Shown in pieces: positions 195 to 1,365 of a stretch of DNA of 4,911 nt. The first letter of the stretch is position 1; each line of letters starts with the position of its first letter. Source of the stretch: a virus (lineage: Duplodnaviria; Heunggongvirae; Uroviricota; Caudoviricetes); IMG/VR virus record IMGVR_UViG_2526164619_000013, positions 1 to 4,911 of that record. One strand, written 5' to 3'. Position numbers and translations under genes: made by a program. The notes beneath the pieces were generated by a model. The model was not told where the DNA came from. It saw only the letters and a list, made by a program, of their open reading frames with translations, and did no database searches.

Positions 195-1087
195 TTTTTC
201 CAGTATCGATTTTCCGATTCGTTTGGGGGTAACCCACCGTTATATTCGTGCGGTCTTAGTGCGCTGTAATATCCAACGATATAGTCCGTTATGGCGTGAG
301 CTGCCTCGCTGAAGCTTACGTAACCCACCACCGGCATCCATTCGTTCTTCAGACTCCTGAAGAAGCGTTCCATTGGGCTGTTATCCCAGCAGTTTCCGCG
401 CCGGCTCATACTCTGTCTGATCTGGTATCGCCACAATAACTGCCGGAACTGCCTGCTCGTATAATGACTGCCCTGATCGCTGTGGAACATCACCCCGCCG
501 GGCTTACCACGGGTTTCCCATGCCATTTCCAGTGCTTTCATGGTGAGCCTGCTGTCCGGCGAGAACGACATGGCCCAGCCCACTGGTTTTCTTGCGAACA
601 GGTCGAGAACAACGGCGAGGTACGCCCAGCGCTTACCCGTCCAGATACAGGTCACATCACCGCACCACACCTGATTTGGCTCGGTCACGGCGAACTGCCT
701 TTCAAGGTAGTTAGGGATAGCAACATGTTCATGACCACCACGTTTATACCGGTGAGTCGGCTGCTGACAGCTGACCAGCCCCAGCTCTTTCATGAGCCTG
801 CCAGCAAGCCAGCGTCCCATCTGGTAGCCTCTCCGGGTTGCCATTGTGGCGATGCTTCTTGCTCCGGCCGAACCATGGCTGATGCCATGTAGCTCAAGTA
901 CCTGACTGCGTAATACAGCCCGTCTGCCGTCTGGTTTTTCAGGACGGTTTTTCCAGTATCTGTAGCTGCTGCGATGAACCCCGAACACTTGGCAGAGTGT
1001 GACCACAGGATAATGCGCTCTGAGTTTCCCGATTATCGAGAACTGTTCAGGGAGTCTGACATCAAGAGCGCGGTAGCCTTTTTTAAT
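167..1087 (-). CDS. IS911-like OrfB frame (DDE integrase/transposase catalytic domain), expressed mainly as the OrfAB fusion by -1 ribosomal frameshifting
   Basis: The -1 frame relative to orfA is open from the ATT codon at 1087..1085 ([28 protein letters not shown]...) through ...[27 protein letters not shown] to a TGA stop at 169..167. It carries retroviral-integrase-like DDE-family sequence typical of IS3-family OrfB ([22 protein letters not shown]). Confidence 0.88.
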
Positions 1088-1365
1088 ATTTCATTCTCCA
1101 TTTCAATGCGTTGTAGCTTTTTCCTCAGCTTACGTATTTCGATTTGTTCTGGTGTTATCGGAGAGGCTTTTGGTGTTTTGCCCTGACGCTCATCACGCAG
1201 TTGTTTGACCCATCTTGTCATTGTGGAAAGGCCAACATCCATAGCTTTGGCGGCATCTGCCACCGTGTATTTCTGGTCAACAACCAGTTGAGCTGATTCG
1301 CGTTTAAACTCTGCGCTAAAATTTCTTTTTTCATTGGAGCACCTGTGTTGTTCTGAGGTGAGCAT
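1033..1365 (-). CDS. IS911-like OrfA (transposition regulator, HTH/leucine-zipper protein); N-terminal 0-frame part of the OrfAB transposase
   Basis: The 110-aa ORF ...[100 protein letters not shown] is near-identical to IS911 OrfA as I recall it. The in-frame ATG at 1365..1363 is preceded by GAGGTGAT. The exact start is uncertain (see finding on the A6 run at 1326..1331). Confidence 0.88.
1078..1084 (-). promoter_or_regulatory. Programmed -1 ribosomal frameshift heptamer A-AAA-AAG (recoding site fusing orfA to orfB)
   Basis: The minus strand reads ATG GAG AAT GAA ATA TTA AAA AAG GCT in the orfA frame. The heptamer A AAA AAG occupies 1084..1078, an SD-like GGAG lies at 1099..1096 upstream, and an in-frame ATT codon for orfB sits at 1087..1085. 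This is the architecture established for IS911 frameshifting. Confidence 0.8.

Follow-up and report, generated by a model that had tools for sequence, protein, structure and literature searches.

The window, meaning the whole stretch of 4,911 nt that was analyzed, carries a complete IS911 copy on the minus strand, set between a fragment of a core chromosomal gene and a fragment of a prophage head gene. The features of the element and its flanks are as follows, with the kind of evidence in brackets.

1..158, minus strand: flank on the IRR side, from the 3' part of yfaP, a core gene of the chromosome (sequence match)
159..194, minus strand: IRR, 36 bp, containing the orfB stop codon TGA at 169..167 (alignment, in which it is invariant)
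159..1406, minus strand: complete IS911 copy, 1248 bp, with the IRL tip at 1406 and the IRR tip at 159 (identity to annotated copies)
167..1087, minus strand: orfB frame, 306 codons from ATT to TGA, with HTH_21, rve, and rve_3 domains (translation and profile search)
1033..1365, minus strand: orfA', 110 aa, consisting of 12 residues followed by residues 3-100 of canonical OrfA, with its stop TAA at 1035..1033 (translation)
1371..1406, minus strand: IRL, 36 bp, TGAAGTGGCACACTGAATTTGGCCACCTGAACAGAG (identical in 6/6 aligned copies)
1407..1666, plus strand: flank on the IRL side, a 3' fragment of a prophage head gene of the DUF2213 / Pa193_gp24 family (sequence match)

IS911 comes originally from Shigella dysenteriae. 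It is a member of the IS3 family whose orfA and orfB are linked by programmed -1 frameshifting (Polard 1991, Rettberg 1999, and Prere 2011, as cited in PMC4066793 and PMC8136817), and it belongs to the five insertion sequences that have undergone expansion in every Shigella species (PMC7373316). Across its whole length the window copy had 99.7-99.8% identity with many E. coli and Shigella copies, which NCBI lists under 'IS3-like element IS911 family transposase'; those E. coli RefSeq records that were examined also carry the note 'programmed frameshift'. Six-copy alignment revealed three differences from the pSB4 copy of S. boydii Sb227. Relative to the 1249-bp consensus there were four, namely a deletion in an A run, a Tyr-to-Cys substitution, and two private synonymous SNPs (A at IS nt 113 and 874). 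IRL and IRR have TG..CA tips and match each other at 24 of 36 positions. The size of about 1.25 kb, the 36-bp inverted repeats, the overlapping orfA (frame 0) and orfB (frame -1), the frameshift cassette, and the DD(35)E motif with its K are all as in IS911; two features are missing, the canonical 100-aa OrfA starting with MKKRNFS and the 3-bp target-site duplication. Because OrfA residues 3-100 are unchanged, the altered orfA start is a variant within IS911 and not a sign of another family, and the absent duplication is no argument against membership since it was lost here by rearrangement. The exact 399-aa fusion product is RefSeq WP_435531861.1, 'IS3-like element IS911 family transposase [Shigella boydii]'. 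Judged from its sequence, the element is IS911 itself, nothing new in kind, and its gene product is already in RefSeq.

The length of IS911 in the literature is 1250 bp. Current database copies are 1249 bp long with a PGAP OrfAB of 389 aa, compared with 382 aa in the IS911 literature (PMC2909936). A single additional base close to where orfB ends would explain both discrepancies, as translation would then stop at TAA 191..189, seven codons earlier.

The two flanks of the window copy do not belong together. The yfaP flank matched yfaP in 5375 of 5426 E. coli genomes. The opposite flank was 99.7% identical to EIEC-like E. coli prophages in which the head gene is uninterrupted, and genes for cement, capsid, and head completion follow it. 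Neither the yfaP-IRR junction nor the IRL-phage junction was present in 5426 complete E. coli genomes. An exact 40-mer spanning a junction had no match in genome_contigs either, exact-protein searches with the ORFs at the junctions gave no hit, and the prophage cement protein proved to be very widespread. The 3-bp flanks (156..158 and 1407..1409) differ, reading CAC and ATA on the IS strand, and there is no target duplication. The IS911 copy is a rearrangement junction, with yfaP on one side and a prophage head gene on the other, as is expected when two IS911 copies recombine or when a deletion or inversion occurs next to the element. Lacking a target duplication, the copy has flanks that record no transposition event. 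The earlier note had reasoned that a competent copy fits a role in a recent rearrangement. The role itself agrees with the chimeric flanks and the missing duplication, but the connection with competence has to be dropped, since homologous recombination between IS copies needs no active transposase and the rearrangement says nothing about transposase competence.

Two other features of the phage DNA were recorded. The sequence TGAAGTG (1420..1426), 14 nt outside IRL, equals the first 7 nt of the IS911 IR tips; it was rejected as an IR-like IS911 target, a 9/12 match being found in 13% of random 120-nt phage windows. At ~4602..4911 lies an IS1 end (GGTAATGACTCCAACTTACTGATAGTG...), with the InsB C-terminus on the minus strand. 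It cuts the prophage just past a 194-aa gene ending at 4568, where related prophages go on into further head-tail genes.

The frameshift cassette lies in the middle of the element, with the following parts.

1099..1096, minus strand: SD-like GGAG (sequence)
1087..1085, minus strand: ATT, putative start codon of OrfB, in frame with orfB and abutting the heptamer on its 5' side (sequence and translation)
1084..1078, minus strand: slippery heptamer A-AAA-AAG for the -1 shift from orfA to orfB (sequence)
1015..1071, minus strand: downstream stimulatory RNA, a three-way junction of a basal stem and two hairpins (RNA fold)

On the minus strand, GGAG is separated by 8 nt from ATT and by 11 nt from the heptamer, with 0 nt between ATT and the heptamer. 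Translation of orfA places the heptamer in the phase X XXY YYZ (..ATA TTA AAA AAG GCT.., encoding I L K K A). Beyond it, the -1 frame stays open for 303 more codons and extends the product; read from ATT, orfB runs for 306 codons without a stop (translation of 1087..167) and terminates at TGA 169..167, within the 36-bp IRR. A programmed -1 frameshift is recognized by a zero-frame X XXY YYZ heptamer, stimulators, and an open -1 frame, all of which were found. The 98-nt IS911 cassette of PMC8136817 (Table 1) aligned with window 1104..1007 (minus strand) with 0 mismatches, and 0 of 200 shuffled sequences matched. Each of the motifs GGAG, ATT, and A6G is short on its own, which is what could be said for a chance co-occurrence unrelated to recoding; the exact 98-nt match, the shuffles, and the full-length IS911 setting rule this out, and we assign it a negligible probability. 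The earlier note had claimed a fully intact cassette with the expected positions and spacing, and an orfB open to its stop inside IRR. Direct reading of the minus strand confirmed the positions and spacing, identity to the experimentally used cassette at 98 of 98 nt extended the intactness to the downstream stimulator, and the 306-codon frame with its TGA at 169..167 agreed with the last point.

The 71 nt past the heptamer folded with -21 kcal/mol (z-score -2.55) into a basal stem, GCGCUCU/AGAGCGC, and two hairpins. This three-way junction begins 6 nt 3' of the heptamer, its sequence is invariant in the six-copy alignment, and the same architecture has been reported for IS911 (PMC5009743, citing Rettberg 1999). 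An E-value scan of the whole window against Rfam gave no family for the frameshift RNA. In the five other aligned IS911 copies the frameshift region was invariant, with a single exception, an E. coli copy whose heptamer is A5G. That copy, in E. coli YJ4 (NZ_AP023230.2), has A5G for A6G at IS nt 323 and is still annotated with 'programmed frameshift'; it is probably defective, since the single-base loss there does not fuse orfA to orfB.

An IS911 cassette of identical sequence gave 12-13% -1 frameshifting in reporter assays (PMC8136817), and a GGAG-to-CCUC mutant combined with deletion of the stem-loop has served as the 'no stimulator' control for IS911 (PMC4066793). GGAG has been assigned two roles, as upstream frameshift stimulator and as ribosome-binding site for AUU-initiated OrfB (PMC4066793; PMC8136817). 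Two papers cited in PMC4066793 and PMC8136817, Polard 1991 and Prere 2011, name initiation of OrfB at AUU in their titles. In the window copy all three recoding signals (GGAG, heptamer, and downstream structure) are present and unaltered. It is very probable that 1104..1007 (minus strand) represents a genuine, unaltered IS911 programmed -1 frameshift site and that OrfAB would be produced from it in the following manner. According to the IS911 literature, approximately 12-13% of the ribosomes translating orfA would step back by one base at A-AAA-AAG. Two elements would aid this step, GGAG by pairing with 16S rRNA and, downstream, the stem-loop of the three-way junction. After slipping, ribosomes would read on in orfB to yield the OrfAB transposase (HTH, leucine zipper, and DDE), and those that do not slip would terminate to yield the regulator OrfA. 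GGAG would also permit initiation of OrfB at the AUU directly before the heptamer. We infer that the frameshift signal is in use in the window copy.

We then consider the product of the shift. The positions in orfB that bear on catalysis, numbered as in canonical OrfAB, are as follows.

656..658, minus strand: first catalytic Asp, D227 (alignment to HTLV-2 integrase)
647..649, minus strand: TGT (Cys) at D+3, Y230C, where most IS911 copies have TAT (Tyr) (alignment and cluster sample)
476..478, minus strand: second catalytic Asp, D287 (alignment to HTLV-2 integrase)
368..370, minus strand: catalytic Glu, E323, with K330 seven residues on (alignment to HTLV-2 integrase)

The -1 fusion product matched the NCBIfam IS3 transposase model NF033516 over its full length with 377.6 bits (cutoff 160). 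Among Pfam domains, HTH_Tnp_1 and rve (108.8 bits) scored above their cutoffs and HTH_21 slightly below its own. In a comparison with PDB sequences, orfB aligned to the catalytic core of HTLV-2 integrase, with the first Asp in GDVT, the second in HSDQG, and the Glu in PMERF. The gap between D227 and D287 is 59 residues and that between D287 and E323 is 35 residues, with K at E+7. Inactivating substitutions in the DDE residues had been named in the earlier note as the finding that would speak against an active copy; the alignment revealed none at D227, D287, or E323, and K330 is kept. The substitution at D+3 is less usual. Tyr occupies this position in 14/14 other sampled protein-cluster members covering the site, and Cys is common to several plasmid copies of S. 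boydii and S. dysenteriae. Since retroviral integrases have His at the aligned residue, D+3 is not a catalytic position.

The start of orfA is where the window copy departs from canonical IS911, and two features are needed here.

1326..1334, minus strand: canonical orfA ATG (1334..1332) followed by an A6 run (1331..1326), which is A7 in the others (alignment column 76)
1363..1373, minus strand: upstream start, an SD-like GAGGTGAT (1373..1366) abutting ATG (1365..1363) (sole in-frame ATG)

Canonical OrfA has 100 aa, starts with MKKRN, and carries W42 in its HTH (PMC2909936; PMC3219604; reporter design in PMC4066793). In the A6 copy, translation from the canonical ATG runs out of frame and gives only a 38-aa nonsense peptide. 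The window copy has no ATG in frame with orfA other than that at 1365..1363, 31 nt upstream of the canonical start, and PGAP places the start of WP_435531861.1 (399 aa) there. Immediately before this ATG, GAGGTGAT reads as complementary over 8 nt to the 3' end of 16S rRNA and is a putative Shine-Dalgarno site. Through the change from A7 to A6, a 16-codon upstream ORF that is otherwise separate becomes part of orfA, giving OrfA' of 110 aa and OrfAB' of 399 aa in place of the canonical 100 and 389 aa. W42 is kept in OrfA', and its HTH_Tnp_1 match starts at residue 13, so the N-terminal extension lies outside the DNA-binding domain. Use of the heptamer depends on ribosomes that are already in the orfA frame; given A6, only the upstream ATG (1365..1363) could feed the frameshift site. 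Entry into orfA in the A6 copy would be from this ATG alone, and OrfA and OrfAB would both be 10 aa longer (110 and 399 aa).

The same ATG appears to overlap TGnTATGCT (IS nt 38-46), which resembles an extended -10 motif. If this motif were the resident promoter pIRL, transcripts would begin past the upstream ATG and could not encode OrfA' or OrfAB'. If it is a weak resident promoter, OrfA' and OrfAB' could come only from junction-promoter or read-through transcripts. A sigma-70 consensus scan of 1000..1500 found no promoter. For IS911 in general, transposition is of the copy-out-paste-in type, with an IRR-3 bp-IRL circle as intermediate that bears the junction promoter.

Exact matching over 71 nt gave the A6 form for 12 records among 4218 E. 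coli matches and for 33 plasmids among 1612 plasmid matches. Searches for the exact 110-aa OrfA' returned 46 contigs along with 72 index blocks, drawn from NCBI, ENA, and Logan short-read assemblies, with S. sonnei 53G and 3226-85 as the named sources; for comparison, the canonical 100-aa OrfA occurred in at least 1000 contigs. Several A6 copies come from long-read assemblies prone to homopolymer errors, for example CP0267xx-CP0268xx, where one copy also has an extra C, and the A6 run could be suspected as an assembly error in a true copy with canonical A7 and a 389-aa OrfAB. The spread of OrfA' over 46 contigs and 72 index blocks, Logan short-read data and S. sonnei 53G included, makes such an error improbable, as does the neighboring A6 of the slippery heptamer, which is correctly called in the same copies. 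The A6 form is rare, yet it is no artefact of a single assembly.

We compared the A6 copies at their different loci. CP041513.1 and AMGB01000026.1 each have a further locus for the 399-aa protein; the IS copies there differ from the window copy only at its two private synonymous sites and are flanked by perfect 3-bp duplications (CTT/CTT and CAG/CAG). A second A6 haplotype, with Tyr and 418T/532C, was found at at least six distinct loci, four of them with perfect 3-bp duplications, and its derived SNP 832T was present at three loci. The A6 start variant is found on several haplotypes. The simplest reading of this distribution is that the deletion did not stop A6 elements from transposing. Because siblings with the same protein have fresh-looking 3-bp duplications elsewhere, it is probable that the variant continues to transpose or to be mobilized. 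Mobilization in trans or gene conversion may have been the source of the A6 spread. The IS911 transposase is reported to work approximately 200-fold better in cis than in trans (PMC5009743).

These observations bear on another interpretation, in which the cassette is intact but effectively silent and the copy is a non-autonomous IS911, without a normal orfA start and with catalysis that may be weakened by Y230C; such a copy would last only as a substrate for homologous recombination or by means of transposase from other copies. The out-of-frame ATG with its 38-aa nonsense peptide agrees with silence, but the upstream ATG with its adjacent 8-nt anti-SD complement restores the full-length frame, provided that the possible -10 element overlapping this ATG does not place it outside the transcript. 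Likewise, the chimeric junction at which the window copy is found shows no target duplication, whereas the siblings of this copy with an identical protein have 3-bp duplications at two other loci. The rarity of A6 (12/4218 and 33/1612) and the presence of Cys at D+3 in 0/14 other sampled cluster members agree with silence, but the independent A6 haplotype at six or more loci, with 832T at three, is hard to explain without continued mobility, and the strong cis preference makes mobilization purely in trans less likely. Silence is a possible explanation, though a rather doubtful one. With regard to the claim in the earlier note that the copy looks transposition-competent, the siblings with duplications lend it support; the orfA frame has lost its canonical ATG and Y230C had been overlooked, so that competence of the window copy is plausible and the claim is kept at that level.

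The left end of IS911 has two ATGs that are out of phase with each other (IS nt 42 and 73) and that both precede the A7 run. This arrangement might make IS911 tolerant to slips, and the A6 form might be a viable, spreading sublineage with altered regulation. We offer this proposal quite tentatively and consider it unlikely as a whole. If it is true, a one-base slip would switch orfA and orfAB to the upstream ATG instead of killing the element. Expression of the A6 transposase would then need transcripts from upstream of nt 42, by the junction promoter or by read-through, and not those of the resident promoter, and the regulation of the A6 form would differ from that of canonical IS911.

With a recoding signal and a catalytic core that both look fully functional, the copy may contribute to continuing rearrangement of the genome of a Shigella-like host. 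The value of the analysis lies mainly in annotation. The point for specialists is a rare A6 start variant in which initiation would be moved upstream and which is apparently still spreading.

Compared with canonical IS911, the window copy shares the 36-bp inverted repeats, the 98 nt of GGAG-N8-AUU-A6G plus three-way junction, OrfA residues 3-100, and DD(35)E with K, whereas it has A6 instead of A7, a start 31 nt upstream, Cys at D+3, two private SNPs, and no 3-bp duplication. E. coli dnaX uses the same A-AAA-AAG with an SD-like stimulator upstream and a stem-loop downstream; the stimulator is 10 nt upstream in dnaX and 11 nt in the window IS911 (sequences in PMC8136817, Table 1). Unlike IS911, dnaX is a cellular gene with a simple, stronger hairpin, approximately 45-60% frameshifting, and no AUU internal start. 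IS3, IS2, and IS150 follow the same OrfA/OrfAB logic with an A-rich slippery motif near the end of orfA, but the sequences of their sites are unrelated to the window IS911 cassette, and IS3 has a downstream pseudoknot (PMC4066793; PMC8136817) where IS911 has its three-way junction.
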